A DNA stretch of 64,000 bases from the NCBI GenBank assembly GCA_963676835.2, contig CAXXFF010000003.1, positions 288,001 through 352,000 of the forward strand. The letters run 5' to 3'. Below the pieces are notes generated by a model, which did no database searches, was not told the origin of the DNA, and saw only the letters and a program-made list of their open reading frames with translations. How positions within the stretch are numbered: position 1 is the stretch's first letter; every line of letters begins with the position of its first letter. Position numbers and translations under genes: made by a program. This document shows, piece by piece, positions 4,722 to 55,671 of this stretch. The DNA is from Marispirochaeta sp. Lineage in GTDB: Bacteria > Spirochaetota > Spirochaetia > JC444 > Marispirochaetaceae.

Positions 4722-4857
4722 CACTTATTTAAAAATAGCATGATTGTATTTTTTTCCATCATAGAATATCTACAAATCAAAAGTAACCGTCAATTAAACC
4801 CCACCTTATGCCGACATCAATGAATGCCCTACAATCCTCCCTTAATGGAGGAATCGC

Positions 4858-5186
4858 ATGGTCAAATATAATCGGGAACAGCAGTGTGAACATCTTAGAA
4901 ATTGGGAAAAAGTGGGTTAAGCGGGCAGGAGTATTGCCGGCAGCACGAAATACCACCCACAACATTTTACAGCTGGAAAAAAGCCGAAAGGAAACGTGCC
5001 GTACAAACAGGATTAGCTTCTGAAACAGCAGCAGCCGGGTTCATACCAGTAAAAAGCTCTTTTCATCATTTATCCAAAAAAGAAACCATTACCATAAAGT
5101 TGCACGATATTGTTATTACTCTGCCGGTAACAGCAAACCATGACCAGCTTAAAGCAGTATTAACAGCCTTGAGGGTTTATGAATGA
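4858..5186 (+). pseudogene. tnpA: IS66 TnpA accessory protein, frameshifted
   Basis: From ATG 4858 the frame reads MVKYNREQQCEHLRNWEKVG*. The A-run is A5 here but A6 in the intact copy 2 (109 aa). Confidence 0.85.
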
Positions 5187-5530
5187 CCCCAGATTTATCA
5201 GCGGTACAGATATTTATCCGGCCAGGCATCACTGATATGCGTAAAGCAATCAACGGCTTAGTTGTCATGGTGCAGGACTATATGAATGAAAATCCGTTAA
5301 GCGGCAATCTGTTTCTGTTCTGCAACCGCGAACGACGAATTATGAAAGCCCTCTACTGGGACAAGAACGGATTCTGTCTCTGGCAGAAGAAACTGGAAAA
5401 GCATAAGTTTCCCTGGCCCGTAACCGAAGAAACTGCACGTATGATTACCCCGGAACAGCTATCGATGCTGTTGAAAGGCATCGATTTTTGGAATGAACAT
5501 ACTAGTTTGGAATATTCGCGGGTTTCGTAA
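5183..5530 (+). CDS. tnpB: IS66 TnpB accessory protein
   Basis: TDMRKAINGL...LFLFCNR...KALYWDKNGFCLWQKKLE; ATGA overlap with tnpA. Confidence 0.95.
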   Translation: MTPDLSAVQIFIRPGITDMRKAINGLVVMVQDYMNENPLSGNLFLFCNRERRIMKALYWDKNGFCLWQKKLEKHKFPWPVTEETARMITPEQLSMLLKGIDFWNEHTSLEYSRVS

Positions 5531-5591
5531 GCATATTATTGGTGTAAAGGAATTTACATAGAATGTACGGCATGCTAGAATTCTTATTAGC

Positions 5592-7112
5592 ATGGATGTT
5601 ACAGAACTTCCCAGGGAAGTACAGGACTATATCCACGAACTTAATAGTTCCTGGGAGCAGCGTTATGGTGCCTTGGAAGAGCAGTACAAATTGCTTCTTC
5701 TTCAGAAATTTGGCCGTAAAAGTGAAAAAGAACAACAGGATGAGTATCAACCGCTGTTGTTCGGACTTGAAGAGAATGGTACTTCGGAGAACGATGCATC
5801 AGAGACTTCCGTACCAGTTCAGTCCCATCCCCGCAGGAAATCCGGCAGAAAACCAATTGATGAAAGCCTTCCCCGGGATGAGATCATCATTGATATTCCC
5901 GAAGAAGAAAAACAGTGTGCCTGCGGCCATGCGCTGGTTCGTATCGGCGAAGAGACCAGCGAGCGCTTACAGGTAATCCCCCCGAAGATGTGGGTGGAAC
6001 GGATTATCCGCCCCAAGTATGCCTGTAAAAACTGTGAAGGCTCCGGGGATGAAGAGAAGCCGGCGGTAAGGGTTGCTGATCCCCCTGCAAGTATTATCCC
6101 TAAAAGCATTGTAACGCCAGGATTGATCTCCTTCATCATAGTGAACAAGTTTGTCGATCATCTGCCCTATTACCGGCAGGAGAAACGGTTTGAAAGAATC
6201 GGCATCCACATAAGCCGTCAGAACATGAGCAACTGGCAGCAGGCGGCGTTTGATAAAATTGAACCGTTAATAGAAACACTGAAAACGCATATCCGGTCAG
6301 GGCCGGTCATCAACATGGATGAAACCCCGGTCCAGGTACACGGAGAACCGGAACGCCCTGACACGGCGAAATCCTATATGTGGCTTGCCCGCGGCGGCCC
6401 TCCGGAAAACCCGGGATTGCTTTACTCATACCGGGAAACCCGCGGGTCCCGGCATATTAAAGAACTTCTCGATGGATTCAGCGGCTTTTTACAGACCGAC
6501 GGCTATGATGCGTATCGTACAGCCCTGGCGGGGAATGAACAGATAGTCCATGTCGGCTGCATGGCCCATGTTCGGCGAAAGTTTCATGAAGCTGCAAAGG
6601 CCTCGAAGAAAGCAGCAAGTGCACAGGAAGCATTGAATGCCATCAGGAAACTGTATGGAATTGAAGAGCGTCTTCGCAGTATGGAATTGCCCGAAGACCA
6701 GTTTGTTGACCAGCGCAAATCTCAGGCGGAACCGGTTTTGCAGAAGTTTAGAACCTGGCTTGAAAAACGCAGTCAGCAGGTTCCTCCTTCGTTATTGCTT
6801 GGGAAAGCAATTCAGTACACCTTGAACGAATGGGAGAAACTGGTACACTACCTCGATTCTCCCTATCTGACACCTGACAACAATAGCGCGGAACAGGCTA
6901 TTCGGCCGTTTGTTCTGGGCCGAAAGAACTGGTTATTTTCCGGTAGTCCAAAGGGGGCTGAAAGTTCCTGTGCCATGTATTCACTGATTGAGACAGCCAA
7001 ACAAAATAATGTGAACCCGAACGACTACCTGAGACGCGTTTTTGAGGAAGCTCCACTCATGAATGAATCTGATAACTGGGAAAAATTGCTGCCATGGAAT
7101 ATTTCCCTCTGA
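5592..7112 (+). CDS. tnpC: IS66 DDE transposase TnpC
   Basis: Zn ribbon CACG...YACKNC, MDET, LQTDGY, CMAHVRRKF, DNNSAEQAIRP..LGRKNWLF. Confidence 0.97.
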   Translation: MDVTELPREVQDYIHELNSSWEQRYGALEEQYKLLLLQKFGRKSEKEQQDEYQPLLFGLEENGTSENDASETSVPVQSHPRRKSGRKPIDESLPRDEIIIDIPEEEKQCACGHALVRIGEETSERLQVIPPKMWVERIIRPKYACKNCEGSGDEEKPAVRVADPPASIIPKSIVTPGLISFIIVNKFVDHLPYYRQEKRFERIGIHISRQNMSNWQQAAFDKIEPLIETLKTHIRSGPVINMDETPVQVHGEPERPDTAKSYMWLARGGPPENPGLLYSYRETRGSRHIKELLDGFSGFLQTDGYDAYRTALAGNEQIVHVGCMAHVRRKFHEAAKASKKAASAQEALNAIRKLYGIEERLRSMELPEDQFVDQRKSQAEPVLQKFRTWLEKRSQQVPPSLLLGKAIQYTLNEWEKLVHYLDSPYLTPDNNSAEQAIRPFVLGRKNWLFSGSPKGAESSCAMYSLIETAKQNNVNPNDYLRRVFEEAPLMNESDNWEKLLPWNISL

Positions 7113-7242
7113 TTTTTTTCTCTGGGTGAAGTTTAATTGACGGTTACAATCAAAATAGTTTAAAAGAACAAATATCATCATCCAAGAAAAGATCATTTTT
7201 TCAATGGACGAATACCTTGGTTTATTATACCATTTCGTAAGA

Positions 7243-10200
7243 ATGGATAGTCTCGAAACGATCCTGAATTCAAGCCTACTATTAGACTTAGAGACTGCCC
7301 TTGATGGCACAATACTCAAGGTGGGAGCGGTTTCAGGACAATAAAAAGTACATTTTCAAGGTCATTTTAAACGATCAGATGTCGTAAATTCCCTGAATGG
7401 TATTAGTCAAAACTCAAAATTCATTATTGGACACAACATAGTTGATCATGATTTGCCTTTGCTTAAGGAAAAGATGCCCGACCTTGATCTTCTTAAGTTA
7501 CCAATTATCGATACGCTTTTACTCTCCCCATTAGCATTTCCCAAGAACCCATACCACAAGCTGGTAAAAGATTACAAGCTAGTACATACAGCCATCAATG
7601 ACCCGGTTGAAGATGCAAAGAATGCTGCACTACTGTTTGAAGATGAAGTTAGGGTATTTGTAGAGCTAAAGCAAACAGATATTGGCCTACTAAAGTTCAT
7701 TGCTTGGGCATTCTCAGACACAATGGATGTACTATTTAATACTTTAGAAGTAGTGCCTTGGCATGACCAGGAGGCTAAATCATTTTTTACAGATTATGCG
7801 TCAAGGTACGCGTGCATAACCGCTTCTCAGCAGATAGATTTACAGGATTCAAAAGCTTCTGCTTACACACTCTCGTGGCTCAGAGTAGCTGGTTCCAACT
7901 CTGTTCTACCACCTTGGGTTAGACATCGTTATCCCGCAGTAGTTCATATTATTCGTAAGCTAAGAGATACCTCCTGTGATGATCCACAATGTTCGTATTG
8001 TCTAGTTGATAATAATCCACAGAAGCAACTACAGCATTTTTTTAAAGATGAAGAAGGAAAGCCATTTGAGAATTTCAGAGAAAAACCATCATTAAAAGAT
8101 GGGAGCAGTTTGCAGGAAGCTATAGTACGAAGTGGTATGAGTAACGAACCTTTGCTGGCCATACTGCCAACCGGTGGGGGCAAATCACTCTGTTATCAGC
8201 TACCTGCCCTTGTACGGAACCAAAGGTGTGGCGTTTTGACTATTATCATTTCACCACTACAGGCCCTAATGAAAGACCAAGTCGATAACCTTAAGCGTTT
8301 TACCGGTTATGACTTTGCAGCAGCACTATATGGAATGTTAACACCACCAGAACGTGGCAATGTAATGGAACGGGTCCGCCTTGGTGATGTTGCCCTTCTT
8401 TATGTATCGCCTGAACAGCTACGCAATGTTTCATTTAGAAACCTAGTTAAACAGCGAGAGATTGGCTGTTGGGTTTTTGATGAAGCACACTGCTTGTCAC
8501 GTTGGGGTCATTCATTCCGTCCTGACTATCTCTACGCATCTCGTTTTATACGTGAATTGGCGGATATTCATCATGTTGGAAATCCCCCAGTTGCTTGTTT
8601 TACCGCAACCGCCAAAAAGGATGTTATTGAAGAAATCCAGCAACATTTTAAGACTGAACTGGGTCAAACATTAGTCACATATGATGGCGGAGCTGAAAGA
8701 ACTAATCTAATGTTTGAAGTTCAGCTCGTTAATTCCGCCGAAAAAAGAGCACGCGTCTTGCAACTGTTAGAAGAACGGGTACCAAAAGAAGGTTCTTCAG
8801 TTGTCTATTGCGCAACACGTAAAGGTACGGAGGAGATGGCTGAATGGCTTAGACGGTCAGACTTAAACGCAGAAGCCTTTCATGCTGGGTTAGAACCACC
8901 TGAGAAAAGAAGAATACAAGACGGTCTCATAGTTGGAGATATTGATCATATATGTGCGACCAATGCTTTTGGAATGGGTATCGATAAAGATAATGTGAGA
9001 TTGGTTGTGCATTCAGATATTCCTGGTTCTCTTGAAAACTATCTGCAGGAAGCAGGACGTGCTGGACGAGACCGTGACCCTGCTCAATGTGTTTTGCTAT
9101 ACGATGAGAAAGATATCGAAACTCAATTTTCGATGAGTGCATCTTCAAGACTTACCCGTAATGACATTGCTCAAATTCTAAAAGGACTGCGGCGGTCAAA
9201 ACGTGACGAAAATAACACAGTCATTATCACTTCAGGAGAAATCCTTCGTGACGACGAAGTAGAAACACGCTTTGATACAAACGACCCTATGGCGGCCACA
9301 AAGGTTAACACTGCTGTGTCTGTTCTTGAGCGTGGAAGTTTTATTGAACGGAATGAGAACTGTACAAACGTAATTCAGGTAAAACCTCTCATGCAAACCT
9401 TGAAAGAGGCACAAGCCAAGATTTCAACCTTAAACCTTTCAGAAAGCGTAACAAAACAATGGCAGGAAATCATGATGCAACTTTTTGATCATGATCCAAC
9501 CCACCCCATAAGTGCAGATAATTTAGCTGAGCTACCTTCAATGGAAGCAGCACAAGATTCTACCGATAACCAGATATTACAACATGACACCTTGCCAGTA
9601 TTAAGAATCCTCAATGATATGGTGAACGCAAGCCTCGTAAAAAAAGATACTCTCCTGAGTGCCTATGTTAAAGTCCGCTGTACGAATTCATCTGACAAGA
9701 TCTTTACTGATATTTGTGCGTTAGAAACCGCTATGATTGATTTAATGTGCGAGGAAGAACCTGATCCTGAAGGCTGGATGGTATTAAGCCTACGTCGACT
9801 CAATCAGCGCTTACTGGATAATAGCCATATAAGTGCACCCGAATTACTCCGTAATCTATTGAATAGCCTATCTCTTGATGGACAAGGCTTAGCTGGGAAA
9901 CAAGGTAGCATCTTATTAAGATATCGAGATAAAGATCATTATCTTGTTAAACTCCAAAGATCATGGAGTGATTTACGCACTACTGTGGAACGACGTCAAA
10001 CCGTTGCAAGTATTATCCTGAAAACAATCTCAGAGAAGATTACACCGGGAAATAGTGGAGAGCACTTGGTTGAATTTGGCGAAAGTGAATTAATAGAAGC
10101 ATTGAAATCTGACATGTTCGTTTCTGCACAAATTAGAGACTTTAGTGCTGCTATTGAACGAAGCTTACTGTATCTCCATGAACAACGCTGTATTATCTTA

Positions 10201-12296
10201 CAACAAGGTTTGGCAGTATTTCGGTCAGCCATGACTATTAGTATTCTTCCAAGTGCCAAGGGGCGACGCTTTACCGATGGCGATTTTTCTTCCTTAAAGG
10301 AACACTATAGGGAACGAAATTTCCAAATACATGTAATGAATCGCTATGCATCGCTTGGGTTAGATAAGATTCAGGATGCACTTAATATGGTTATCGCGTA
10401 TTTCACCATGGAAAAAACAGAGTTTGTAGAACGCTATTTCCCGGGTGATGAGGAAATGCTTGATCGAGCTACCAGCGCTGAATCATACCAAAAAATTGTT
10501 GATGAACTAAAAAATGGGGTTCAGGTTGCAGTCGTATCCGCAAAAAAAGATAAAAACATGCTGGTATTGGCAGGTCCTGGTTCTGGCAAAACACGGGTGA
10601 TTGCTCATCGTTGTGCCTATCTTTTACGAGTTGAGCGGGTACGCCCACGGGAAATTCTTGTTGTATGCTTTAACCGTGCAGCAGCAATGATTCTAAGACA
10701 ACGCATTTTTGACTTGGTAGGTAAAGATGCTGCAGGTGTTACTATCCAGACATATCATGGGTTGGCAATGCGCCTGACTGGGAAATCCCTATCTGCACAT
10801 CTTGAGAATAGCAAAGAAAGTTTCGACTTAGACTCTCTTATTCCTCAGGCAACTGCTATGCTTCGAGGAGAGTGTGATATTCCAGGGCTTGAACGAGATG
10901 AAATGAGAGAGCGCTTGTTGGCTGGCTATCAGCATATTTTGATTGATGAATACCAGGACATAATGAAGATGCCAAACTTTCCATCCTGGCAGTTGGTGAC
11001 GATGATCAAAGTATCTATGCATTTAGAGGCGCCAATGTTCGGTTTATCCGTCAATTTGAAGAAGATTATGGTGCACAACTTCATTATCTGGTGGAAAATT
11101 ATCGGTCAACACAGAATATCATTGATGTTTCAAATAAGCTAATCGCTCTAAATCAGGATAGAATGAAGACAGAACATCCTATTCAGATAAACCATACCCG
11201 CAAAATGGAACCACACGGTAAATTAATATGTATCGCACACTGTTCTGATGCTTTACATCAGGCACGCCATGTCCTAAAAGAAATCACCAACTTAGTCAGT
11301 ACAGGTGAAAGTATTGCTGTCTTATCTCGCACAAACAAAGAACTAAATCCCATCCGTGCAGCTTTAGAATTTGGAGGAATCCCCTCCTCTGTAGCAGCTG
11401 AGAAAAACAAGGGAATTCCCTTTCATAGATTAAGAGAGTTCTTGGCATTAATAAATCAAATAAAAGAGTTAAAGCAAAAGGCTATAACAGCAGAAGAGTT
11501 ACGAGTATTATTTAATCAAGGTAAAAACAACCATCATGGAAACGTCTGGTCTACCTTGCTTGATACAATCCTTGCACAGTGGAAGGATGAAACTCATAAT
11601 AATGCAACCACACCTGTTGAAGCATTAGATTTTCTCTATGAGTCTATTCAAGAATACCAACACAATGGTTCTCAGGAAAATTCAATTTATCTCTCAACAG
11701 TATACGCAGCAAAGGGGTTAGAGTTTGATCATGTATTCATCCTGGGCAATTGGACTCATCAACAAAATCGAGAGAAACAGGAGGAGGAACGTCGTCCATA
11801 CTATGTAGGCATGACCAGGGCACGAAAGACATTAACCTTGTATGAATTAGCGAATATTCAGAATCCCCATACCTCTGAGCTACACGGGTCGGCAATTAAA
11901 CATCTTGATATAGGGGCATTACCTGGTCCATCTGAAGAAACACTGAGGCAATGTTATTCAACCCTTGATCTTTCTTCAATTTGGATCGGGTTTCCTGTAA
12001 CAGGACCAAAGGCTACTCTTATCCGAAGTGATATATCTAAGCTGCAACCTGGTGAGATTGTATCGCTGACCAAAGCAAAAACAAGTGATCGTATCTTCAT
12101 CAACAACACTGAAGGCAATCGAGTTGGTGCGTTATCTATGGATGCTAGCCTAAAATGGGGAGAACGCATAGAAATGATCCAATCAGTTAAGATTCATGCT
12201 ATCATCTCATGGCGTAAAGAATTCTCTGAGATAGCCACAGAGGAGTGCCCTGATGAGTGGGAAGTTCCTTTGATAGAAATTACATGGATAGAATAA
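7243..12296 (+). pseudogene. Disrupted DEDD exonuclease-like + RecQ helicase + UvrD helicase fusion (~1680 codons)
   Basis: In-frame ATG 7243 with LLLDLET and GHNIVDHD motifs. In-frame TAA at 7342-7344. RecQ motifs PTGGGKS, DEAH, ATNAFGMGIDK, QEAGRAGRD. UvrD motifs AGPGSGKT and DEYQD, then a frameshift near 10961 to AVGDDDQSIYAFRGA, ENYRS, AKGLEF and YVGMTRA. Confidence 0.85.
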
Positions 12297-12401
12297 GTAT
12301 ATTGGGACTTATCATAGTTAACTGAAGTAGCCATGGTTATAGAGCCAGTCCCCTGGTCTTGAGGTGATTTCCCTGTCATAATTTTAACTTAAGGAGTGGG
12401 A

Positions 12402-14321
12402 ATGACTAAAGAATCCATCTTCACGACTTTGAAAAAACAGTTCGGCTTTGATGCTTTTCGCGAAGGTCAAGAAGCAGTTATTTCTCGTATTCTTCAAGGA
12501 AAATCAACAGCGGCAATTTTCCCCACAGGTTCAGGAAAGTCTCTCTGTTATCAACTTACGGCGGTAATGCTGCCTGGATTGACTATAGTAGTTTCTCCGC
12601 TGCTGTCGCTGATGCACGATCAACTCACTTTCCTAAAGTCAAAGGGAATTGCTGCGGCTTCCCTCGACTCCACTCTCAGCCGTGATGAATACAACAACAT
12701 TCTTAAACTAGCGGAAGATGGGGCATACAAAATTTTAATGATATCTGTGGAAAGATTCCGCAACGAAAGATTCCGATATCATCTTACAAAAATGGATATT
12801 TCTCTTCTTACAGTAGACGAAGCGCACTGCATTTCAGAGTGGGGGCACAACTTCCGCCCCGAATATCTAAAGTTAGCGCACTACGCCAACGAGTTTAATA
12901 TACCTCAGGTGCTTCTGTTAACAGCTACAGCCACAGTAGAAGTGGCAAACGACATGTGTCAAAAGTTTGGCATATCAAGCGAAGATTGCATACGAACCGG
13001 GTTTTACCGGAAAAATCTCTATATCGGTATGACTCCAGTCGCAGAAGATCAAAAACTAAATCTTCTTAAACTGCGGATAGCTGATAATAGTGGAAGTATG
13101 ATTGTCTATGTGACCCTACAGCACACTGCAGACGAAATAGCAAGCAAACTGACTGCGGCAGGGATATCTACAGCATCCTATCACGCGGGTATGGACAATG
13201 AGGCTCGAAAAGATGTTCAAGACCGGTTTATGAACAGCAAAATTCAGGTGGTGGTGGCAACAATCGCTTTCGGTATGGGAATAGATAAGAGTGATATCCG
13301 CGGGGTGATTCACTATGATCTTCCTAAATCTATTGAAAACTACTCCCAGGAAATTGGACGAGCCGGCCGTGATGGGAAATTAGCCCGCTGTGAACTCTTC
13401 GGATGCGGTGATAACATTCCAGTACTGGAGAACTTCGTTTATGGGGATACCCCTGACAAAGAGTCTATCGCCGTTGTTCTGAAGCAGATAGTCGAAGCAG
13501 GAAGTCAGTGGGAAACTCAGATCTATACCCTTAGCAGGGACAGCAATATCCGCGAACTACCGTTGAAGACGTTGTTGGTGCATCTCGAAATGGAAGGGAT
13601 TATTACACCTTTGTTGACATATTTCGGCGAGTACAAATTCAAGACAGATCTTACCGGCTCTGAGATTCTGAAAAATTTCAGCGGCGAACCGCAAAAATTC
13701 CTGAGACAGCTGTTCGGTTATGCTAATAAAAAAAAAGTATGGATATCGCTCGACATACAACGATTCTGTGCAGAAACGGGAGCAGATCGAAAAAGGGCGG
13801 TAGCTGCCCTCGAATATTGTGACAATCTCAATCTGATAGAGCTCTCCGTAACACGCGCAATCGATATGTACCGGGTTAATACTGTCCTTATAGACATCAC
13901 TGTACTTGCTGAAAAAATGGCAACTCATTTTACACAAAAAGAAGCACAGGAGATCAGGCGTATAAATCAGATGATCGATTTCTTTGAACAAAATAACTGC
14001 CTATCCTCTGAACTTTCCAGTTACTTCGGCCAGAAACTTCCTAACCCATGCGGACATTGCTCTGTATGCAATGGTAAAGAGGGGAAGATGATCCGAAATA
14101 ATGCGAAAAAGGTTACTACACAGAGAATTGCATCCTATGTATTGGATTTTAAATCAGCAGCGGCAGAATGGTGTTCTCCGGAAACTGCAACGCGCTATCT
14201 CTGCGGCATCGCAATGCCTATAACCAACCGTTTAAAATTGAAACAGCTCAAAGGGTTTGGGATTTGCGAATCAATGCCGTATGCGAATGTTCTCCAGGCG
14301 GTAAAACAGATTATTTCATAG
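12402..14321 (+). CDS. RecQ-family ATP-dependent DNA helicase (no obvious HRDC domain)
   Basis: PTGSGKSLCYQL, DEAHCISEWGHNFRPEY, ATIAFGMGIDK, QEIGRAGRDG, C..CGHCSVC zinc site. ATG 12402 follows AAGGAG. Confidence 0.92.
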   Translation: MTKESIFTTLKKQFGFDAFREGQEAVISRILQGKSTAAIFPTGSGKSLCYQLTAVMLPGLTIVVSPLLSLMHDQLTFLKSKGIAAASLDSTLSRDEYNNILKLAEDGAYKILMISVERFRNERFRYHLTKMDISLLTVDEAHCISEWGHNFRPEYLKLAHYANEFNIPQVLLLTATATVEVANDMCQKFGISSEDCIRTGFYRKNLYIGMTPVAEDQKLNLLKLRIADNSGSMIVYVTLQHTADEIASKLTAAGISTASYHAGMDNEARKDVQDRFMNSKIQVVVATIAFGMGIDKSDIRGVIHYDLPKSIENYSQEIGRAGRDGKLARCELFGCGDNIPVLENFVYGDTPDKESIAVVLKQIVEAGSQWETQIYTLSRDSNIRELPLKTLLVHLEMEGIITPLLTYFGEYKFKTDLTGSEILKNFSGEPQKFLRQLFGYANKKKVWISLDIQRFCAETGADRKRAVAALEYCDNLNLIELSVTRAIDMYRVNTVLIDITVLAEKMATHFTQKEAQEIRRINQMIDFFEQNNCLSSELSSYFGQKLPNPCGHCSVCNGKEGKMIRNNAKKVTTQRIASYVLDFKSAAAEWCSPETATRYLCGIAMPITNRLKLKQLKGFGICESMPYANVLQAVKQIIS

Positions 14322-14572
14322 ATTACAACCGGGATAACCCTTAATCTGGATTGTATAGTACACCACGTTCAAAGCCTTGGGCGGTCTGAACTGAACCACC
14401 CCAAGGGAATCGGATCCTGTTTTTTTGAGTCTGCACAATTAATTATTAGAGCATTATGTACTATTTTCCAGTACATTCTACACCACATATAGTATCAAAT
14501 ACTATTAAAAAACTGATAACGCCTATTTATCTTGACTTTCTATTGTATTAATATCACATCACATCAAAATGT

Positions 14573-14621
14573 TAGGATCCACCACAATTCGCTTGTACTG
14601 TGGTAGATTCTATCATATAAT
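14573..14621 (+). promoter_or_regulatory. abiE promoter (TTGTAC-17-TATAAT) overlapped by a 14-bp imperfect inverted repeat (candidate AbiEi operator)
   Basis: -35 at 14593-14598, -10 at 14616-14621; TAGGATCCACCACA / TGTGGTAGATTCTA arms match 12/14. Confidence 0.7.
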
Positions 14622-14626
14622 AAAGA

Positions 14627-15226
14627 GTGGATCAGAAGACCAAAAGTAAAATTGAAGCTTATTTTAAAGAACATGAAGGCATTGCACGTACCTCGGGATT
14701 CCAAAGAAACGGATTTCATAATTCTTATCTAACAGAATTAGTCGAAGAAGGATATCTTATCCGACTGAAAGCTGGACTCTATCTCATGGCAGAGAAGCAG
14801 AGTGTTTCCGGATTCCATGAAATCCAAATATCAATTCCTTCTGCTGTAATATGCCTCGCATCGGCACTGTCTGTTTATGAGCTTACTACTTATGAACCAC
14901 CAGCAGTACACATCGCTATACCAAGGGATGATAGAACCTCACCTCCCGACTATCCACCTGTGAGGAAGTTTTCTTTCGGAAAAAAACGATATACATTGGG
15001 GATGACTAAAATTGAAATTGAAGGCAAAGAAATCGCTATATATGACAAGGAAAAAACAATCTGTGATAGTATTCGTTATCGACGAGTACTCGGCCAGGAC
15101 ATTGTAAATGAAGCTGTTCGAAAATACCTTGGCAGCCAGAGAACTAATATAGACAAGCTTATCGAGTACTCACGAATCCTCAAGTCCGAAGGTCCTCTAC
15201 AGACCCATTTAAAACTTATGGCATGA
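14627..15226 (+). CDS. abiEi: Type IV TA antitoxin AbiEi
   Basis: N-terminal wHTH (LIRLKAGLY), ICLASALSVYELTT..P, IYDKEKTICD; overlaps the toxin by ATGA. Confidence 0.88.
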   Translation: MDQKTKSKIEAYFKEHEGIARTSGFQRNGFHNSYLTELVEEGYLIRLKAGLYLMAEKQSVSGFHEIQISIPSAVICLASALSVYELTTYEPPAVHIAIPRDDRTSPPDYPPVRKFSFGKKRYTLGMTKIEIEGKEIAIYDKEKTICDSIRYRRVLGQDIVNEAVRKYLGSQRTNIDKLIEYSRILKSEGPLQTHLKLMA

Positions 15227-16095
15227 AAAACATATCAGCTTCAATCAGAGCAAAACTACTTAACAAGGCAAAGGAAGAACATATTCCATTTCAGCGAATT
15301 CTCACCCTTTACAAGCAGGAAGGCTTACTACATCGCATTGTAATGACAAAGAACAGTAACGAGATTGTTCTTAAAGGTGGGCTTCTTTTCTTTCAACTCC
15401 AGGGACTATCCGCCCGCCCTACAAAAGACATTGATCTTTTAGGATCAAAAATAAATCATACTGAAACTAAGTTGCGAGAATTACTAATAGATGTTTGTGG
15501 GATAAATCTTGACGATGGACTTCAGTTTGATATTTCATCGATTGAATTTAGCCCTATTACAGGCCAGACAGATCATGGTGGAATCAGAGGCTGGATAACA
15601 GCATTTCTCGGCGAATCCCGCACCAGACTTCAATTAGATATGGGATTCGGAGATGTCATCACTGGCGGTCCGTTGATCAGACCTTATCGAACTCTTCTTG
15701 GAAATCGCTCTTTCTTTATTCAGACCTATTCTGACGAGACCGTGGCGGCGGAAAAACTTGAAGCTCTGGTCTCTCTCGGTACAATAAACAGCCGTTATAA
15801 GGATATCTATGATCTATATGAACTTCTCATAGAATCAAAATTAACTAAAGATAAGGTGATTGCAGCTGCATGCAACACATTTATTAACAGAAATACTTTT
15901 TTGCCTGAGATTCCAGAGAGCCTGACCGAACCTTATTGGGCTTCATCTTCATTTATAACCGATTGGAGTCGCTACCTTAAACGAATTGCGGCTACCGAGC
16001 CAACACAAGATCAATTAATAAAAAACCTTCTTCCAAAATTACAGAATATCTACAGCGTTATAAGAGAGAAGGTGCTTAAGCAAAGGCTTAATTAA
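15223..16095 (+). CDS. abiEii: Type IV TA toxin AbiEii nucleotidyltransferase
   Basis: ASIRAKLLN, VLKGG, RPTKDIDL, AEKLEA, NSRYKDIYD motifs. Confidence 0.9.
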   Translation: MKNISASIRAKLLNKAKEEHIPFQRILTLYKQEGLLHRIVMTKNSNEIVLKGGLLFFQLQGLSARPTKDIDLLGSKINHTETKLRELLIDVCGINLDDGLQFDISSIEFSPITGQTDHGGIRGWITAFLGESRTRLQLDMGFGDVITGGPLIRPYRTLLGNRSFFIQTYSDETVAAEKLEALVSLGTINSRYKDIYDLYELLIESKLTKDKVIAAACNTFINRNTFLPEIPESLTEPYWASSSFITDWSRYLKRIAATEPTQDQLIKNLLPKLQNIYSVIREKVLKQRLN

Positions 16096-16174: not shown

Positions 16175-16214
16175 GTAATCGCTCTTGTTTCACATACACA
16201 TAGGGGGCTGCGGT

Positions 16215-17840
16215 ATGGGGAAATTTTTTGCTGTTTTTTGCCTCTGTCTTCTTCCTTTCCAGCTGTATGCCCGCGACATTGATGTTGGGTCGCCGCACTA
16301 TTGGGAAGTTCTTAACGTCGACCGTCCGAACAGAAGCCCGTATGCCGATCCGGAGTCGTTAACCGCCACCGATATTTCAGGTGAGGAGATTTTCAGCTTA
16401 CCTCTCCGCCTGACGAATCTGCGCAACGTTCGCAGCAGCCGCAACATCTCGGAGCTTCCGAACTGGAACGGGAACTATAACTTCGGGTGGATATTCGACA
16501 ACGCCTCGAATGTTTCACCCCATGATTACGAGCGGGACTGGGGACATGAAGGATGTGGATCTGACAATTTCTTCGGCAGAAGCATATTTCTCAATGTTTA
16601 CGATCCCGACTACAAGGCATTTTCGTTCCACAAATACATCCAGGGGGAGGACATTGAAGTCACCCAGCCGAAGATGGTGGACTTCTCTCGCCTGGGAACA
16701 CCGGGAAAAAACTTCCGTATCCTGGTTTCCACGAGTCCGTACTACCCCAATGGTTCCGGAGAGCTTCTGCTCTTCATTCCCTACCTAAACGGCTTGCGGA
16801 TCATAAACGTAGGGGGCCGGTTGGTACGAATCCCTTACGATGAACGGAGCAGTTCGAACTACGATCCCGGCCGAGTGGATCCCGGGGATGGAAGGACATC
16901 AGGAATCTGCCTTGTATTTCATCCCATCAGCACCGATACTCCCCATGACATCTATCCCCAGAAAAATGATAAAACCGTCATGGACGGCGCCGCAATGTCG
17001 TCCTTCCGCAACAAATCCATCGTGGAGTATTCCGAAGAACAAGGGGCCGATCTCTTTGCCGTGGACTGGGGATACCAGGGCTACTACGAAGAGTATGAAG
17101 ACATCGTCACTGAGAATCTCGCACCTCTTCTGAATGAAGACTGCCGCTGCATCAACAGTTCCTATGATGTCGTCGGATACAACGGGACGACGATTTTCCA
17201 GATGAGCTGTCGGGACCGGGCCGCCGGTCAGGCTCCTGTAGAAGTTCTTCAGAGTCTCGACCTGACCGAGCATTTTATCCTCATCAACGGAAAAGTCCCC
17301 TTCTTCGACGGCTCACAGCCTGGACTCTTTAATGGAGCCGACATCGGCTACGCCTATTCCTATGCTGTGAAAAACCAGGATTTCACGTCGGCGAAAATCA
17401 GGAATGGATCGAACGGGAATATTCTGGCCCTCACCCACTATCCCAGGGGCCCGCTGAGCATCAGTCCCCAGGACGTCCAGGGTCGCTACATCGTCGCAAC
17501 CCTGGGGTTCAGCAGGGAAGCAGCGGAATCCCAGATTGCCACAGCTATTTCGACAATAAGCCACCCTAAAGGAAGAATCATATCCGCTTTAAGAGAACTC
17601 CCTATAGAACTGCCGGAATCAGTTAACGTTGATATTCAGGAAGCCCCGATGGATGACTATACCATTCTGGAAGCAGCCAGGAGCGCCGAAGGCGGGTGGG
17701 TCATACTCGCTGAATGCCCCATGGAGGACATCATGACATCAGTCGTGGAACCAGCGCTGACAAGGCATCGCAACAAGATCTCTCCTCCACTCAATGTACC
17801 GGCCCTGATGGACCGGCTCCGTGAGACTCTGTTTAACTGA
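16215..17840 (+). CDS. Hypothetical secreted protein (~541 aa)
   Basis: Long ORF; signal peptide MGKFFAVFCLCLLPFQLYA from ATG 16215; visibly more GC-rich than the flanks; no family recognised. Confidence 0.75.
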   Translation: MGKFFAVFCLCLLPFQLYARDIDVGSPHYWEVLNVDRPNRSPYADPESLTATDISGEEIFSLPLRLTNLRNVRSSRNISELPNWNGNYNFGWIFDNASNVSPHDYERDWGHEGCGSDNFFGRSIFLNVYDPDYKAFSFHKYIQGEDIEVTQPKMVDFSRLGTPGKNFRILVSTSPYYPNGSGELLLFIPYLNGLRIINVGGRLVRIPYDERSSSNYDPGRVDPGDGRTSGICLVFHPISTDTPHDIYPQKNDKTVMDGAAMSSFRNKSIVEYSEEQGADLFAVDWGYQGYYEEYEDIVTENLAPLLNEDCRCINSSYDVVGYNGTTIFQMSCRDRAAGQAPVEVLQSLDLTEHFILINGKVPFFDGSQPGLFNGADIGYAYSYAVKNQDFTSAKIRNGSNGNILALTHYPRGPLSISPQDVQGRYIVATLGFSREAAESQIATAISTISHPKGRIISALRELPIELPESVNVDIQEAPMDDYTILEAARSAEGGWVILAECPMEDIMTSVVEPALTRHRNKISPPLNVPALMDRLRETLFN

Positions 17841-17895
17841 CACATCGGGATGAAAAAAACGTAACCGTCAATTAAACCTCACCCAGAGAAAAAAA

Positions 17896-19416
17896 TCAGA
17901 GGGAAATATTCCATGGCAGCAATTTTTCCCAGTTATCAGATTCATTCATGAGTGGAGCTTCCTCAAAAACGCGTCTCAGGTAGTCGTTCGGGTTCACATT
18001 ATTTTGTTTGGCTGTCTCAATCAGTGAATACATGGCACAGGAACTTTCAGCCCCCTTTGGACTACCGGAAAATAACCAGTTCTTTCGGCCCAGCACAAAT
18101 GGCCGGATGGCCTGCTCCGCGCTATTGTTGTCCGGCGTCAGATAAGGCGAATCAAGGTAGTGTACCAGTTTCTCCCATTCGTTCAAGGTGTACTGAATTG
18201 CTTTCCCAAGCAATAACGAAGGAGGAACCTGCTGACTGCGTTTTTCAAGCCAGGTTCTAAACTTCTGCAAAACCGGTTCCGCCTGAGATTTGCGCTGGTC
18301 AACAAACTGGTCTTCGGGCAATTCCATACTGCGAAGACGCTCTTCAATTCCATACAGTTTCCTGATGGCATTCAATGCTTCCTGTGCACTTGCTGCTTTC
18401 TTCGAAGCTTTTGCAGCTTCATGAAACTTTCGCCGGACATGGGCCATGCAGCCGACATGGACTATCTGTTCATTCCCCACCAGGGCTGTACGATACGCAT
18501 CATAGCCGTCGGTCTGTAAAAAGCCGCTGAATCCATCGAGAAGTTCTTTAATATGTCGGGACCCCCGGGTTTCCCGGTATGAGTAAAGCAATCCCGGGTT
18601 TTCCGGAGGGCCGCCGCGGGCAAGCCACATATAGGATTTCGCCGTGTCTGGGCGTTCCGGTTCTCCGTGTACCTGGACCGGGGTTTCATCCATGTTGATG
18701 ACCGGCCCTGACCGGATATGCATTTTCAGAGTCTCAATTAAAGGTTCAATCTTTTCATACGTCATCTGCTGCCAGTTGCTCATGTTCTGACGGCTTATGT
18801 GGATGCCGATCCGCTCAAATCGTTTCTCCTGCCGGTAATAGGGCAGATGATCTACAAATTTATTCACTATGATGAAGGAGAGCAATCCAGGCGTTACAAT
18901 GCTTTTAGGGATGATACTTGCAGGGGGGGCAGCAACCCTTACTGCCGGCTTCTCTTCATCCCCGGAGCCTTCACAGTTTTTACAGGCATACTTGGGGCGG
19001 ATAATCCGTTCCACCCACATCTTCGGGGGGATTACCTGTAAGCGCTCGCTGGTCTCTTCGCCGATACGAACCAGCGCATGGCCGCAGGCACACTGTTTTT
19101 CTTCTTCGGGAATATCAATGATGATCTCATCCCGGGGAAGGCTTTCATCAATTGGTTTTCTGCCGTATTTCCTGCGGGGATGGGACTGAACTGGTACGGA
19201 AGTCTCTGATGCATCGTTCTCCGAAGTACCATTCTCTTCAAGTCCGAACAACAGCGGTTGATACTCATCCTGTTGTTCTTTTTCACTTTTACGGCCAAAT
19301 TTCTGAAGAAGAAGCAATTTGTACTGCTCTTCCAAGGCACCATAACGCTGCTCCCAGGAACTATTAAGTTCGTGGATATAGTCCTGTACTTCCCTGGGAA
19401 GTTCTGTAACATCCAT
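17896..19416 (-). CDS. tnpC: IS66 transposase TnpC
   Basis: Near-identical to 5592..7112. Confidence 0.97.
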   Translation of the reverse strand: MDVTELPREVQDYIHELNSSWEQRYGALEEQYKLLLLQKFGRKSEKEQQDEYQPLLFGLEENGTSENDASETSVPVQSHPRRKYGRKPIDESLPRDEIIIDIPEEEKQCACGHALVRIGEETSERLQVIPPKMWVERIIRPKYACKNCEGSGDEEKPAVRVAAPPASIIPKSIVTPGLLSFIIVNKFVDHLPYYRQEKRFERIGIHISRQNMSNWQQMTYEKIEPLIETLKMHIRSGPVINMDETPVQVHGEPERPDTAKSYMWLARGGPPENPGLLYSYRETRGSRHIKELLDGFSGFLQTDGYDAYRTALVGNEQIVHVGCMAHVRRKFHEAAKASKKAASAQEALNAIRKLYGIEERLRSMELPEDQFVDQRKSQAEPVLQKFRTWLEKRSQQVPPSLLLGKAIQYTLNEWEKLVHYLDSPYLTPDNNSAEQAIRPFVLGRKNWLFSGSPKGAESSCAMYSLIETAKQNNVNPNDYLRRVFEEAPLMNESDNWEKLLPWNISL

Positions 19417-19477
19417 GCTAATAAGAATTCTAGCATGCCGTACATTCTATGTAAATTCCTTTACACCAATAAAATGC

Positions 19478-19825
19478 TTAAGAAACCCGCGAATATTCCA
19501 AACTAGTATGTTCATTCCAAAAATCGATGCCTTTCAACAGCATCGATAGCTGTTCCGGGGTAATCATACGTGCAGTTTCTTCGGTTACGGGCCAGGGAAA
19601 CTTATGCTTTTCCAGTTTCTTCTGCCAGAGACAGAATCCGTTCTTGTCCCAGTAGAGGGCTTTCATAATTCGTCGTTCGCGGTTGCAGAACAGAAACAGA
19701 TTGCCGCTTAACGGATTTTCATTCATATAGTCCTGCACCATGACAACTAAGCCGTTGATTGCTTTACGCATATCAGTGATGCCTGGCCGGATAAATATCT
19801 GTACCGCTGATAAATCTGGGGTCAT
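19478..19825 (-). CDS. tnpB: IS66 TnpB
   Basis: Protein identical to 5183..5530. Confidence 0.95.
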   Translation of the reverse strand: MTPDLSAVQIFIRPGITDMRKAINGLVVMVQDYMNENPLSGNLFLFCNRERRIMKALYWDKNGFCLWQKKLEKHKFPWPVTEETARMITPEQLSMLLKGIDFWNEHTSLEYSRVS

Positions 19826-20151
19826 TCATAAACCCTCAAGGCTGTTAATACTGCTTTAAGCTGGTCATGGTTTGCTGTTACCGGCAGAGTAATAACAATA
19901 TCGTGCAACTTTATGGTAATGGTTTCTTTTTTGGATAAATGATGAAAAGAGCTTTTTACTGGTATGAACCGGGCTGCTGCTGTTTCAGAGCCTATTCCGG
20001 TTTGTACGGCACGTTTCCTTTCGGCTTTTTTCCAGCTGTAAAACGTTGTGGGTGGTATTTCGTGCTGCCGGCAATACTCCTGCCCGCTTAACCCGCTTTT
20101 TTCCCAATTTCTAAGATGTTCACACTGCTGTTCCCGGTTATATTTGACCAT
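19822..20151 (-). CDS. tnpA: IS66 TnpA (intact)
   Basis: WEKSGLSGQEYCRQHEI...FYSWKK HTH; GGAGG RBS. Confidence 0.92.
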   Translation of the reverse strand: MVKYNREQQCEHLRNWEKSGLSGQEYCRQHEIPPTTFYSWKKAERKRAVQTGIGSETAAARFIPVKSSFHHLSKKETITIKLHDIVITLPVTANHDQLKAVLTALRVYE

Positions 20152-20416
20152 GCGATTCCTCCATTAAGGGAGGATTGTAGGGCATTCATTGATGTCGGCA
20201 TAAGGTGGGGTTTAATTGACGGTTACAAAAAAACAGGTGCGGACCACCAAAGAGTGCGGGGTTGATTATCAATCCCACCAGTCCATATTCTTTTCTTAAT
20301 TGGGCGTACTTTTTAGATTTTAAGTTTCTTAAAGAAAGATTTACCCATAGAGCTTTTACATCTTGCTGTTTCAGTAATTTACTGAAGTGATATTAGTGCA
20401 GATATATCGGGAATTG

Positions 20417-21010
20417 TCAGTTCAGCGTAATAACATCACCTTCGATTGTAAAATACCAGGTTCGGGTTCCTTTATTTTCCCGTATTTTACTGTAAGAATA
20501 TAGACTGCCGCCTGCTATTGAAAATCCCAACCCCATATTCAACGGTATATTCGTTTCTCCGATAGTAGTGGACTCCTCAGGAAGAATAGCTCCCATTAGG
20601 ATGAATGTTCCACCTGCAATCAACCATCCACGACCGATTATCCTGGTCTCAAAAAGTCCTACTTCATCATTGCGAACAATTTGACGAGCATCAATCTTTA
20701 AATTAACTATTGCATCACCCTGCTCTGAATCAAGTAGTTTTTTTAAATCATCACTTAAATCAACCTCAATGACTTTGTCCGAACCTTTTTTAATTGAGCC
20801 GATGATTTCCTTATCCAATTCAAAATGTCTGACTACAGTATATTCATTTTCTTCAATAAGGATCCCATTTTTTGCAATAAAATTTTTTGTTAAAGAAATA
20901 GGGAAAGGCGAATCAACTGCGGTAAAGTCCAAGGTATGATCAATTGTCGTGGAGCATGAACAATAAAACACAACTATATGCATTAATATTAAGAACTTTT
21001 TCATTATCAT
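20417..21010 (-). CDS. Hypothetical lipoprotein/membrane protein
   Basis: MKKFLILMHIVVFYCSC lipobox-like start; C-terminal hydrophobic hairpin. Confidence 0.7.
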   Translation of the reverse strand: MIMKKFLILMHIVVFYCSCSTTIDHTLDFTAVDSPFPISLTKNFIAKNGILIEENEYTVVRHFELDKEIIGSIKKGSDKVIEVDLSDDLKKLLDSEQGDAIVNLKIDARQIVRNDEVGLFETRIIGRGWLIAGGTFILMGAILPEESTTIGETNIPLNMGLGFSIAGGSLYSYSKIRENKGTRTWYFTIEGDVITLN

Positions 21011-21444
21011 TCCTCAAAGGCTGTGCCGGATATCTTTGCACGGTATTCATTATATGTATTTCCGAAAAGATATTTGTAAATGGTAACGTATTGAAGATTA
21101 TCAATGATGATGTATTTATCCAGTTCATTGATTTCCCCAATCAATTGTGAAGAAAGCGGTTCGATTGAGTCTTTTGTTACTTTCTTTGATTTAGTTACTG
21201 TAATATACCCATACGTTGTAGTACTGCTTGAATGAAAACGTGAGCTAAATACTTCCGCTGAAATTTGTCGACCATTATCATGGTCAGATACATGATTCAA
21301 CATCAGAGGTGTATCTTCCGATGAAAAGTCGACAATAAATGTTTTAGGATAATCAACAGTCTGACAGGAACAAAAAAATAGGAGCAGGATTATTATTACA
21401 AGAGGAAACAGAACTATTTTTTTCTCGAAATATAGATTTTTCAT
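21007..21444 (-). CDS. Hypothetical lipoprotein
   Basis: KK + hydrophobic stretch + FFCSC lipobox; overlaps the downstream gene by 4 nt; start uncertain (21444 or 21489). Confidence 0.65.
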   Translation of the reverse strand: MKNLYFEKKIVLFPLVIIILLLFFCSCQTVDYPKTFIVDFSSEDTPLMLNHVSDHDNGRQISAEVFSSRFHSSSTTTYGYITVTKSKKVTKDSIEPLSSQLIGEINELDKYIIIDNLQYVTIYKYLFGNTYNEYRAKISGTAFEE

Positions 21445-21913
21445 CTTTTGCAACCTTATGTTTATAAACAGGTAAGGCTTGATGCACAAATCTTGCTACA
21501 ATTATAACATTTCTCTGTACGATTGCAACTATTATTATCACTACACTTTTTATAGTATTTGAATTCCTGATAATACTTCGTAGGTATCTCACCTAAATAT
21601 ATGAACGAACCGCCCCGCCCCCCAAGGTGGCAATACCGTCCGCCACATTGACATCTCCTGCATGTCAAATAATATACACTCTATATTACCTTTATATACA
21701 AGACTATAGCCGGGCCTCAGATGCTCCAATCCATCCTGGCAACTAAAACTCTCAGGAAATAACCTTCAATCTTTCCAAATTCAACAGCCCAAAACGACTA
21801 TAACCCTACAGTTGAACTATTCGGTAATAATAACAGCCCTTTATTTCGGGATTTTTTGTTCGATACTTTTCGTTTATGTTTGACTTCTTTCTCACATAGT
21901 GTATATTTACAAT

Positions 21914-55122: not shown

Positions 55123-55671
55123 TTAATTACCGGGAATCTGGTTAATATACATTTTATCAGAATCCCATTTTTGAGGGTTATTTTGGATGTATTGTTGAAT
55201 TCGCTTGAATTCAACATCATTCCGTATTATGTGCTCCCAATAATTACGCTGCCAGACCTTCTCACCCGGTGTCCTACACATTTCATTTATTTGTTTGGTA
55301 ACAGACGATTTAAACCCGGCCATCACCGCCCCAATCGATCGTGGTTGTGGCCCATTGGTAGGGGCAACCAGCCGGTTGCCCCTACCAATATCGTTGCCCA
55401 TTCCGTTTATCACCATGATTCCGTGAAAATGATTCGGCATTACCACCCATTGGTCCAATTCAATTTCATTCCGTATTTCTGCGGTTTTTATCCATTCCGC
55501 GGACACGATACGACCATTTTCATTTAAAATCATTTTACCATCAACAATATCTCCAAACAAACATTCTCGTTGATGGGTACAGATTGTTATAAAATATGCT
55601 CCAGGTTGAGAATAATCATATCCTTTTAATCTGATAGAGCGTCGATGGTGGATTTCAGGATTATATTTCAT
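55123..55671 (-). CDS. REP-associated (RAYT / IS200-like) Y1 HUH tyrosine transposase
   Basis: RRSIRLKGYDYSQPGAYFITICT, MPNHFHG (HUH), WQRNYWEHIIR, YIQNNP. Confidence 0.9.
   Translation of the reverse strand: MKYNPEIHHRRSIRLKGYDYSQPGAYFITICTHQRECLFGDIVDGKMILNENGRIVSAEWIKTAEIRNEIELDQWVVMPNHFHGIMVINGMGNDIGRGNRLVAPTNGPQPRSIGAVMAGFKSSVTKQINEMCRTPGEKVWQRNYWEHIIRNDVEFKRIQQYIQNNPQKWDSDKMYINQIPGN
55354..55389. repeat. GTAG-type REP-like perfect palindrome inside the RAYT gene
   Basis: ATTGGTAGGGGCAACC-agcc-GGTTGCCCCTACCAAT, 16-bp arms. Confidence 0.8.

Follow-up and report, generated by a model that had tools for sequence, protein, structure and literature searches.

A decayed exonuclease-RecQ-UvrD fusion gene in Marispirochaeta sp. 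and its mostly intact relatives, a patchily distributed family with a possible role in defence

The DNA analysed here (the window) is a stretch of 64,000 nt from Marispirochaeta sp. (GenBank assembly GCA_963676835.2, contig CAXXFF010000003.1, positions 288,001 to 352,000). It carries a pseudogene (7243..12296, +) of a family of proteins of ~1700 amino acids (aa) that join an exonuclease, a predicted zinc site, a RecQ motor, predicted winged helices and a UvrD motor in one chain (hereafter the fusion), as recognised by tblastn with five intact relatives. A separate RecQ gene (RecQ2; 12396..14321, +) starts 99 nt past the stop codon of the fusion and is followed by an AbiEi-AbiEii type IV toxin-antitoxin (TA) pair (14627..16095, +; PADLOC E 2e-55 and 3e-70); two copies of the insertion sequence IS66 flank this group of genes. 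An original prediction had described the fusion and RecQ2 as a candidate nuclease-helicase module acting against phages or plasmids. Its account of the gene order was confirmed. Indeed, the exonuclease, CxxxxCxxC, RecQ and UvrD motifs all lie in one chain at the predicted places once the frame is repaired, the intact RecQ follows at the expected distance of about 100 nt on the same strand, the AbiE pair lies directly downstream of the helicase genes, and a normal, core UvrD open reading frame (ORF) is present elsewhere in the window, at 44317.

The ATG at 7243 starts the fusion frame, which is interrupted at two sites. The first lesion is an in-frame TAA at codon 34 (7342..7344, +), seen by ORF reading and tblastn and present with the same bases in the X1 contig described below. 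The second is a 58-nt frameshifting deletion whose junction (10961..10962, +) lies directly past the DEYQD motif; alignment of the DNA to that of loci L001, L002 and L004 shows that ~19 codons are missing. This deletion sits inside the UvrD motor, so that the complete UvrD motor announced by the original prediction is broken in this genome. A Logan contig of sequencing run X1 spans 7100-14620 with 0 differences at a depth of 17; X1 is probably the source sample, and its contig is a second assembly, not a second strain. An assembly error behind the two breaks was considered and is ruled out by this identical contig, a loss of 58 nt not being a single-base error. The region 7243-12296 is a pseudogene and the full-length protein is not made in this genome. 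As its copy is dead, the window is a poor place to study the family, for which intact homologues are available at L001 (protein P0003), L009 and L029.

The broken state of this copy is an exception, since 58 of the 61 copies from the Genome Taxonomy Database (GTDB) that lie fully inside their locus are intact. Five intact single-ORF homologues (1697-1734 aa) share 65-77% identity with the first segment of the pseudogene and 52-61% with the second (tblastn). Comparison with L001 over 968 codons yielded 483 synonymous and 172 amino-acid-changing differences, which argues for past purifying selection during most of the history of the gene; with such a history, the two lesions are likely recent. 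The deletion junction reads ...GACAT/AATGAAGAT..., and the stretch missing here opens in the relatives with the similar GATGAA/AACCAAGAC; the loss would fit slippage between short direct repeats. Promoter and terminator scans gave results at chance level (20 vs 22 and 7 vs 6.7). Runs X2 and X3 hold a near-identical strain, of which the contigs span only pieces.

The N-terminal part of the fusion (7276..7617, +) is a DnaQ/DEDD-fold exonuclease domain with the motifs LLLDLET (7276), GHNIVDHD (7429), DTLLLS (7510) and DPVEDA (7600). In the L001 homologue, residues 1-260 were modelled as such a domain with a predicted local distance difference test (pLDDT) value of 91. VIA matched this model to Staphylococcus aureus DinG (Z 12.9; PDB 9ii8, root-mean-square deviation 4.4 over 229 residues), Cap18 (Z 12.1), RNase T (Z 11.5) and Pol III epsilon (Z 11.4), and Foldseek retrieved the same families with a probability of 1.0 at E above 0.001. 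Membership in the DnaQ/DEDD group follows from these fold scores (Z 11-13) together with the conservation of D15, E17, D70 and D124. Conservation was read from 72 divergent representatives, each 1600 aa or longer and sharing 35-50% identity with P0003. Of these, 69 have D15 and E17 (three gaps), and all 72 have D70, D124 and two further residues, D90 and H105. The histidine that characterises DEDDh enzymes, five residues before the last aspartate, was not found: the position holds Asn in 59 and Ser in 3 of the 62 sequences of an earlier set, and Asn in 55, Ser in 8 and Pro in 5 of the 72. Nuclease activity would therefore rest on H105 or another base, and the invariant H105, located upstream and before a low-confidence loop, may take the role of the canonical histidine. 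No Pfam or NCBIfam model recognised the nuclease part. Between this domain and the RecQ motor lie four conserved cysteines (codons 191, 245, 250 and 253; 7813..8001, +), identified in the alignment. The predicted CxxxxCxxC motif (7975-8001) accounts for three of them, and the cysteine at codon 191 has to be added to it. All four are conserved in 62/62 sequences of the first set and in 71-72/72 of the second, and they likely form a zinc site.

The RecQ motor, of helicase superfamily 2 (SF2), occupies 8030..9093 (+), with Walker A at 8167-8187, DEAH at 8479 and motif VI at 9046-9072 (Pfam DEAD and Helicase_C). The RecQ-family model TIGR00614 (cut-off 219.8 bits) is passed by the fusion with 282 bits and by RecQ2 with 366 bits, and the model of canonical RecQ, TIGR01389 (cut-off 640), is failed by both (323 and 431 bits); Pfam RecQ_Zn_bind has no match in the fusion and is present in RecQ2. 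The UvrD motor, of superfamily 1 (SF1), extends over 10495..11830 (+) and is split by the deletion; its motifs are Walker A (GPGSGKT, 10573), DEYQD (10945), VGDDDQ (10992) and GMTRAR (11808). It belongs to the UvrD/PcrA/Rep group: Pfam UvrD-helicase (PF00580) and UvrD_C (PF13361) both score above cut-off, and the motifs are present in 72/72 family members. For both motors, the Walker A lysines, the Walker B pairs and the arginine motifs are kept in all 72 representatives.

The two motors are separated by a spacer (9094..10494, +) which, in the model of the L001 homologue (pLDDT 81, predicted template modelling score 0.48), consists of four helix-strand-helix-helix-hairpin units in tandem and then a long helical hairpin. 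VIA matched residues 206-302 of this model to a CRP-type winged helix (Z 8.5) and to RecQL4 (Z 7.8), which are middling scores. One unit would thus be a winged helix by fold search, and the three others are presumed to be so from their secondary structure only. The terminal hairpin is devoid of the RecQ zinc cysteines, which RecQ2 keeps. Foldseek gave no match with E below 0.001 for the spacer, its top rows being RPC62. That the spacer descends from the C-terminus of a RecQ2-type protein was also considered and is unsupported (hhalign probability 3.6%, E 0.012). The chain ends with an unassigned domain of ~130 aa (11900..12296, +) terminating in WEVP, which has a weak resemblance to HIRAN (PF08797; hhalign E 0.0024, probability 12%, 59 columns); PF08797 matched 0 of 54 family members at E up to 1, and no named Atlas match was obtained for this C-terminus. 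Searches of PDB sequences with profiles of the nuclease, the spacer and the C-terminal domain yielded nothing significant.

The spacer, which lies outside all Pfam models, was used as query for the family. At E<=1e-10 it retrieved 978 of 7990 scored candidate proteins, and it also gave 523 clusters at 50% identity. Full-length members are mostly 1670-1800 aa long, and their database names are only RecQ-family or DNA 3'-5' helicase. The fusion is absent from 60/60 relatives of the genome studied, five congeners included, which bears out the accessory status that had been assumed for it, and one of 300 further genomes from the phylum carries it. It is encoded in 24 of 121 genomes of the Desulfobulbales (the order of Desulfosediminicola, centre genome counted), in 10 of 401 Gammaproteobacteria (the class of a Chromatiales genome) and on 23 plasmid or chromid records, and it has no match in 50,697 phage records. 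In a FastTree phylogeny of 124 spacers, which came with long-branch warnings, the copy of the window is sister to L001/L095 within a clade of 21 rows whose labels mix Desulfobulbaceae, Pontiella/Kiritimatiellales, Verrucomicrobiota and Gammaproteobacteria. Furthermore, the fusion has 41% GC against 48% for the genome, in line with the AT-rich DNA reported earlier, and a third-position GC of 0.33 against 0.46-0.49 for two core genes. The mixed-phylum clade, the low GC and the low third-position GC together show that the fusion of the window was acquired horizontally. The first 33 kb of the window (1-33 kb) have little synteny with the congeners except for IS66, and synteny with one of them (G002) begins near 33.8 kb.

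The plasmid and chromid records raise the question of whether the fusion serves mobile elements, by processing ends or intermediates during the replication, transfer or integration of plasmids or integrative elements. One of the 23 records has the fusion beside parA/parB and a replication initiator, and others have it near transposases or integrases. However, 14 of the 23 are non-mobilizable and many are megaplasmids, the search of phage records was negative, and no transfer or replication gene recurs in the neighbour clusters, so that such a role would be very unlikely. Some observations on individual members can be added. Distant, shorter members (~1600 aa; L081 and L082), with 22-29% identity in the spacer, are found in Aliarcobacter and Bacteroides plasmid records, the Aliarcobacter one adjoining parA/parB and a replication initiator. 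L001 and L050 belong to the same metagenome-assembled genome (UBA2775) and fall in distant clades, which corresponds either to two copies per genome or to a mixed bin. In genomes G077 and G403, the fusion matches are split.

RecQ2 is intact (641 aa) and carries an RQC zinc site according to Pfam and profile searches. It is ~50% identical to the ordinary RecQ of Photobacterium, Aeromonas and Pseudoalteromonas and is foreign to the genus, which keeps its own RecQ of 605 aa; the C-terminal profile of RecQ2 has no match in the 5 congeners and is matched in 1 of the 60 relatives. The module of fusion and RecQ2 put forward by the original prediction was not supported. Since RecQ2 lies near the fusion at few loci (4 of 73 in GTDB, where 52 have at least 2.5 kb downstream, 2 of 31 in metagenomes and 0 of 8 on plasmids) and a RecQ2-type match is absent from 18 of the 24 fusion-bearing Desulfobulbales genomes, RecQ2 is, on these sequence counts, an optional neighbour and not a required partner of the fusion. 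An obligate partnership with RecQ2 or with AbiE is ruled out by the neighbour counts and by the genomes that have no RecQ2.

That the two genes form a two-gene, three-motor system, perhaps as an optional enhanced form, is improbable, even if some loci speak for it. Indeed, in L031, L032 and L101, which form one clade, RecQ2 directly follows the fusion on the same strand, in L073/L109 one gene lies in between, and in L071 RecQ2 is four genes off on the opposite strand, for a rough chance expectation of 0.002 cases of adjacency in 64 loci. Both genes are foreign to the genus, and RecQ2 co-occurs with the fusion in 6 of 24 fusion genomes against 8 of 97 other genomes (p=0.03). However, this co-occurrence loses its significance when the two genomes used to seed the profile are left out (p=0.23), and in the six genomes with both genes these are never adjacent and co-directional. 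Moreover, RecQ2 is downstream of the fusion in none of the 14 closest GTDB relatives (7 of which have at least 2.5 kb of flank), it is lacking in L022, the sister of L031/L032, the third-position GC of the two genes differs (0.33 for the fusion and 0.43 for RecQ2), and in the window RecQ2 is intact while the fusion has decayed. The lineages of L031/L032/L101 and of L073/L109 are separate from that of the window, and as the chance figure of 0.002 is greatly exceeded by the pairing in these two lineages, there may be a weak affinity between the fusion and RecQ2, or shared insertion sites.

Several known proteins and systems resemble parts of the fusion. The eukaryotic protein WRN has an N-terminal DnaQ-fold 3'-5' exonuclease, a RecQ motor and a winged helix, with a single motor, a DEDDy tyrosine, an RQC zinc site and an HRDC domain. 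The fusion likewise has an N-terminal DnaQ-fold exonuclease, a RecQ motor and winged-helix DNA-binding modules in one chain, but adds an SF1 UvrD motor, tandem winged helices and a four-cysteine site before the motor and is without the RQC cysteines; given this second, SF1 motor and the lack of any HRDC or RQC zinc match, it is not a WRN orthologue. The RecBCD, AddAB and AdnAB complexes have SF1 motors in separate subunits and PD-(D/E)XK nucleases, and serve both repair and defence. Like the fusion, they combine two motors, or a motor and a nuclease, and unwind and degrade DNA from an end, whereas the fusion unites a DEDD nuclease with one SF2 and one SF1 motor in a single chain. With the exonuclease-DinG proteins of S. 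aureus (PDB 9ii8) and Bacillus subtilis, the fusion shares an N-terminal DEDD exonuclease joined to an SF2 helicase; it differs from them by an SF2 motor that is RecQ-type and not DinG/XPD-type, by its second motor, and by being a patchy, mobile gene. It could thus be likened to a WRN or an exonuclease-DinG with a second motor added. B. subtilis DinG is reported to be a DEDD-SF2 fusion that serves fork and R-loop repair (PMC12525004).

Another parallel is Hna, described as a single-gene anti-phage helicase-nuclease with 3'-5' ssDNA exonuclease activity, present in ~2% of genomes and carrying its SF2 helicase at the N-terminus and a PD-(D/E)XK nuclease at the C-terminus (PMC13381803). Both are single genes with SF2 helicase motifs and a nuclease, and their frequency in genomes is similar; Hna is therefore a precedent for nuclease-helicase defence by a single gene. 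With its nuclease N-terminal and of DEDD fold, and with an additional UvrD motor, the fusion nevertheless falls outside Hna as described there. Among the PADLOC models, DpdF and PsyrT (RecQ core) and GajB (UvrD core) match single motors of the fusion, with E down to 2e-103, but no dpd cluster, PsyrA/DprA partner or GajA was seen at the locus of the window, and no PsyrTA or Dpd partner among the scanned neighbours of other loci. Likewise, the locus is not a Gabija system: the ORFs between the IS66 copies are RecQ2, AbiEi, AbiEii and a 551-aa protein, and the GajB models cover the UvrD core in part. No PADLOC system model matches the fusion as a whole, and no description of this family was found in the literature searched, which did not extend to subscription journals and to the supplementary tables of defence screens; the original prediction had likewise been unable to match it to a named system. 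A single chain that unites a nuclease with motors from two helicase superfamilies was thus not found described, and all three active sites are kept among proteins that are 35-50% identical. The family would allow testing how a DNA strand is shared by two motors of the same polarity, and offers a bacterial parallel to WRN.

The genes around the fusion vary from locus to locus. The neighbourhoods of 20 fusion loci (13 of Desulfobulbales and 7 of Gammaproteobacteria, the longer contigs among 32 positives, centres excluded) were scanned with PADLOC at E<=1e-25 over up to four genes on each side. Two controls were used, arbitrary stretches of the same genomes (n=19) and, as a patchy-gene control, RecQ2 neighbourhoods (n=14; two RecQ2 loci were without neighbours). 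Matches to RecQ cores (DpdF/PsyrT), sigma54-type RtcR, QatD, mad3 (which also matches ABC-transporter proteins), WYL, DEDDh, SNF2 cores and a kinase (PD-T4-6), and partial matches to PycC and PDC-M72A, were not scored as defence. Clear defence components were found at 8 of the 20 fusion loci against 1 of the 19 arbitrary loci (p=0.02). In brief, these comprise named systems, namely BREX (L135), Wadjet (L137), type I restriction-modification (RM) (L140), Azaca with HEC-05 (L149) and RM methylases with PDC-S36 (L151), and the candidate systems PDC-S43 (L133), PDC-S01 (L143) and PDC-M09 (L148). Among the plasmid loci examined, one fusion lies beside a type I RM system, one near a type I-D CRISPR system and three near TA pairs. 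Beyond these counts, an HNH protein, a 329-aa ORF and an LmuB-like DUF3732 protein (L009:4079-8008) lie directly upstream of the Pontiella fusion and probably constitute a Lamassu-type system.

An intact fusion may well be a stand-alone enzyme that unwinds and degrades DNA in the 3'-5' direction from exposed ends, probably those of phage or plasmid DNA, a reading in which we place middling confidence; it is from the gene neighbourhoods that foreign DNA is taken to be the probable target. Since DEDD nucleases, RecQ and UvrD share a 3' to 5' direction, the three activities could follow one another along the same strand. The intact protein would load on a 3' single-stranded tail, a fork or a D-loop; the RecQ motor would open forks and junctions, the UvrD motor would extend the unwinding and strip proteins, the winged helices would hold duplex DNA between the motors, and the DEDD nuclease would degrade the freed strand. 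Since the three active sites have all been conserved, each of them is probably in use.

A number of observations weigh against a defensive role. With named systems only, the enrichment is 5/20 vs 1/19 (p=0.18), and compared with the RecQ2 neighbourhoods it is 8/20 vs 2/14 (p=0.14); as this last difference is not significant, some of the enrichment may reflect a general tendency of accessory genes to cluster. In none of the neighbourhood counts are kin loci independent. Twelve of the 20 loci have no clear defence neighbour, and among L039-L073 a defence neighbour is found at 6 of 35 loci (99 of 129 cluster representatives scanned). At eight loci of one Desulfocapsaceae clade, the fusion stands beside TRAP-transporter and RNase PH genes, and many Desulfocapsaceae copies lie among metabolic genes. 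In addition, among solved structures the nuclease most similar to that of the fusion is DinG, a repair enzyme, and the canonical DEDDh histidine is replaced by Asn in 55 of 72 representatives. The neighbourhood analysis proposed by the original prediction gave a divided answer: the association of the fusion with defence genes is real with respect to random DNA and unproven with respect to other accessory genes, and one clade lies in housekeeping synteny.

An alternative is an accessory genome-maintenance enzyme which, like WRN or exonuclease-DinG, would resect and remodel stalled forks, R-loops or recombination intermediates of the host chromosome, and whose proximity to defence genes would come from shared insertion sites. 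We consider this a real possibility, held with less than even confidence. Every module of the fusion belongs to a repair family, the top fold match is S. aureus DinG, and the B. subtilis exonuclease-DinG is reported to trim forks and R-loops (PMC12525004); the stable synteny in eight loci of one clade, the carriage of the fusion by 20% of the Desulfobulbales, the intactness of most copies and the non-significant enrichment over RecQ2 loci agree with it. Conversely, the fusion is missing in most genomes of every sampled group, the genome studied keeps its own RecQ and UvrD and has lost the fusion, no repair gene recurs among the fusion neighbours, and eight of the 20 loci do have defence neighbours. 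On balance, defence appears slightly ahead of repair. In its fuller form, the defensive reading is a single-gene immune system present in a few percent of bacteria from different phyla, whose RecQ and UvrD motors would deliver DNA to a DEDD nuclease that has a non-canonical histidine. The protein would be a single-chain counterpart of RecBCD and destroy phage or plasmid DNA from 3' ends or replication forks, with RecQ2 as an optional booster; this we put forward tentatively, as somewhat short of an even chance. If the fusion is defensive, it is a single-gene system missed by PADLOC 2.0.

For the window itself the outcome is negative: neither RecQ2 nor AbiE nor the two IS66 copies form a unit with the fusion. 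The AbiE pair is a chance neighbour: it has no close homologue at any other fetched fusion locus, and RecQ2 and AbiE are genes gathered in the same variable region, not subunits. An AbiE of another subfamily precedes a broken fusion copy at L069. In L002, L006-L008, L013 and the L015 clade, several fusion copies are immediate neighbours of rph or gmk, genes which in Proteobacteria border a common integration hotspot.

The two IS66 copies predicted around the genes are indeed present, but they do not mark the boundaries of a composite transposon. As revealed by repeat comparison, copy 1 (4783..7147, +), which ends 95 nt before the fusion ATG, has the target duplication AATCAAAA at 4775-4782 and 7148-7155, and copy 2 (17861..20226, -) has the target duplication AAAAAAAC; since each has its own 8-bp duplication, they are independent insertions, and a composite transposon, which needs a shared outer duplication, is excluded. 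The IS66 family is active in this genome (G000), of which contigs C1-C3 contain about ten near-full copies with 94-99.8% identity, two of which lie in tandem on C2 near 561-566 kb.

Other features of the window are minor. An ORF of 551 aa (16185-17840, +) with a signal-peptide-like start has 52% GC against 40-44% for its neighbours and no Pfam, PADLOC or NCBIfam match; DNA nearly identical to this region is present in run X2. Just outside IS66 copy 2, two small lipoprotein-like ORFs of 197 and 160 aa (20417-21489, -) are encoded, without Pfam match. Finally, an ORF of 182 aa (55123-55671, -) presumably encodes a relative of the tyrosine transposases associated with repetitive extragenic palindromes (REP), of the IS200/IS605 type.

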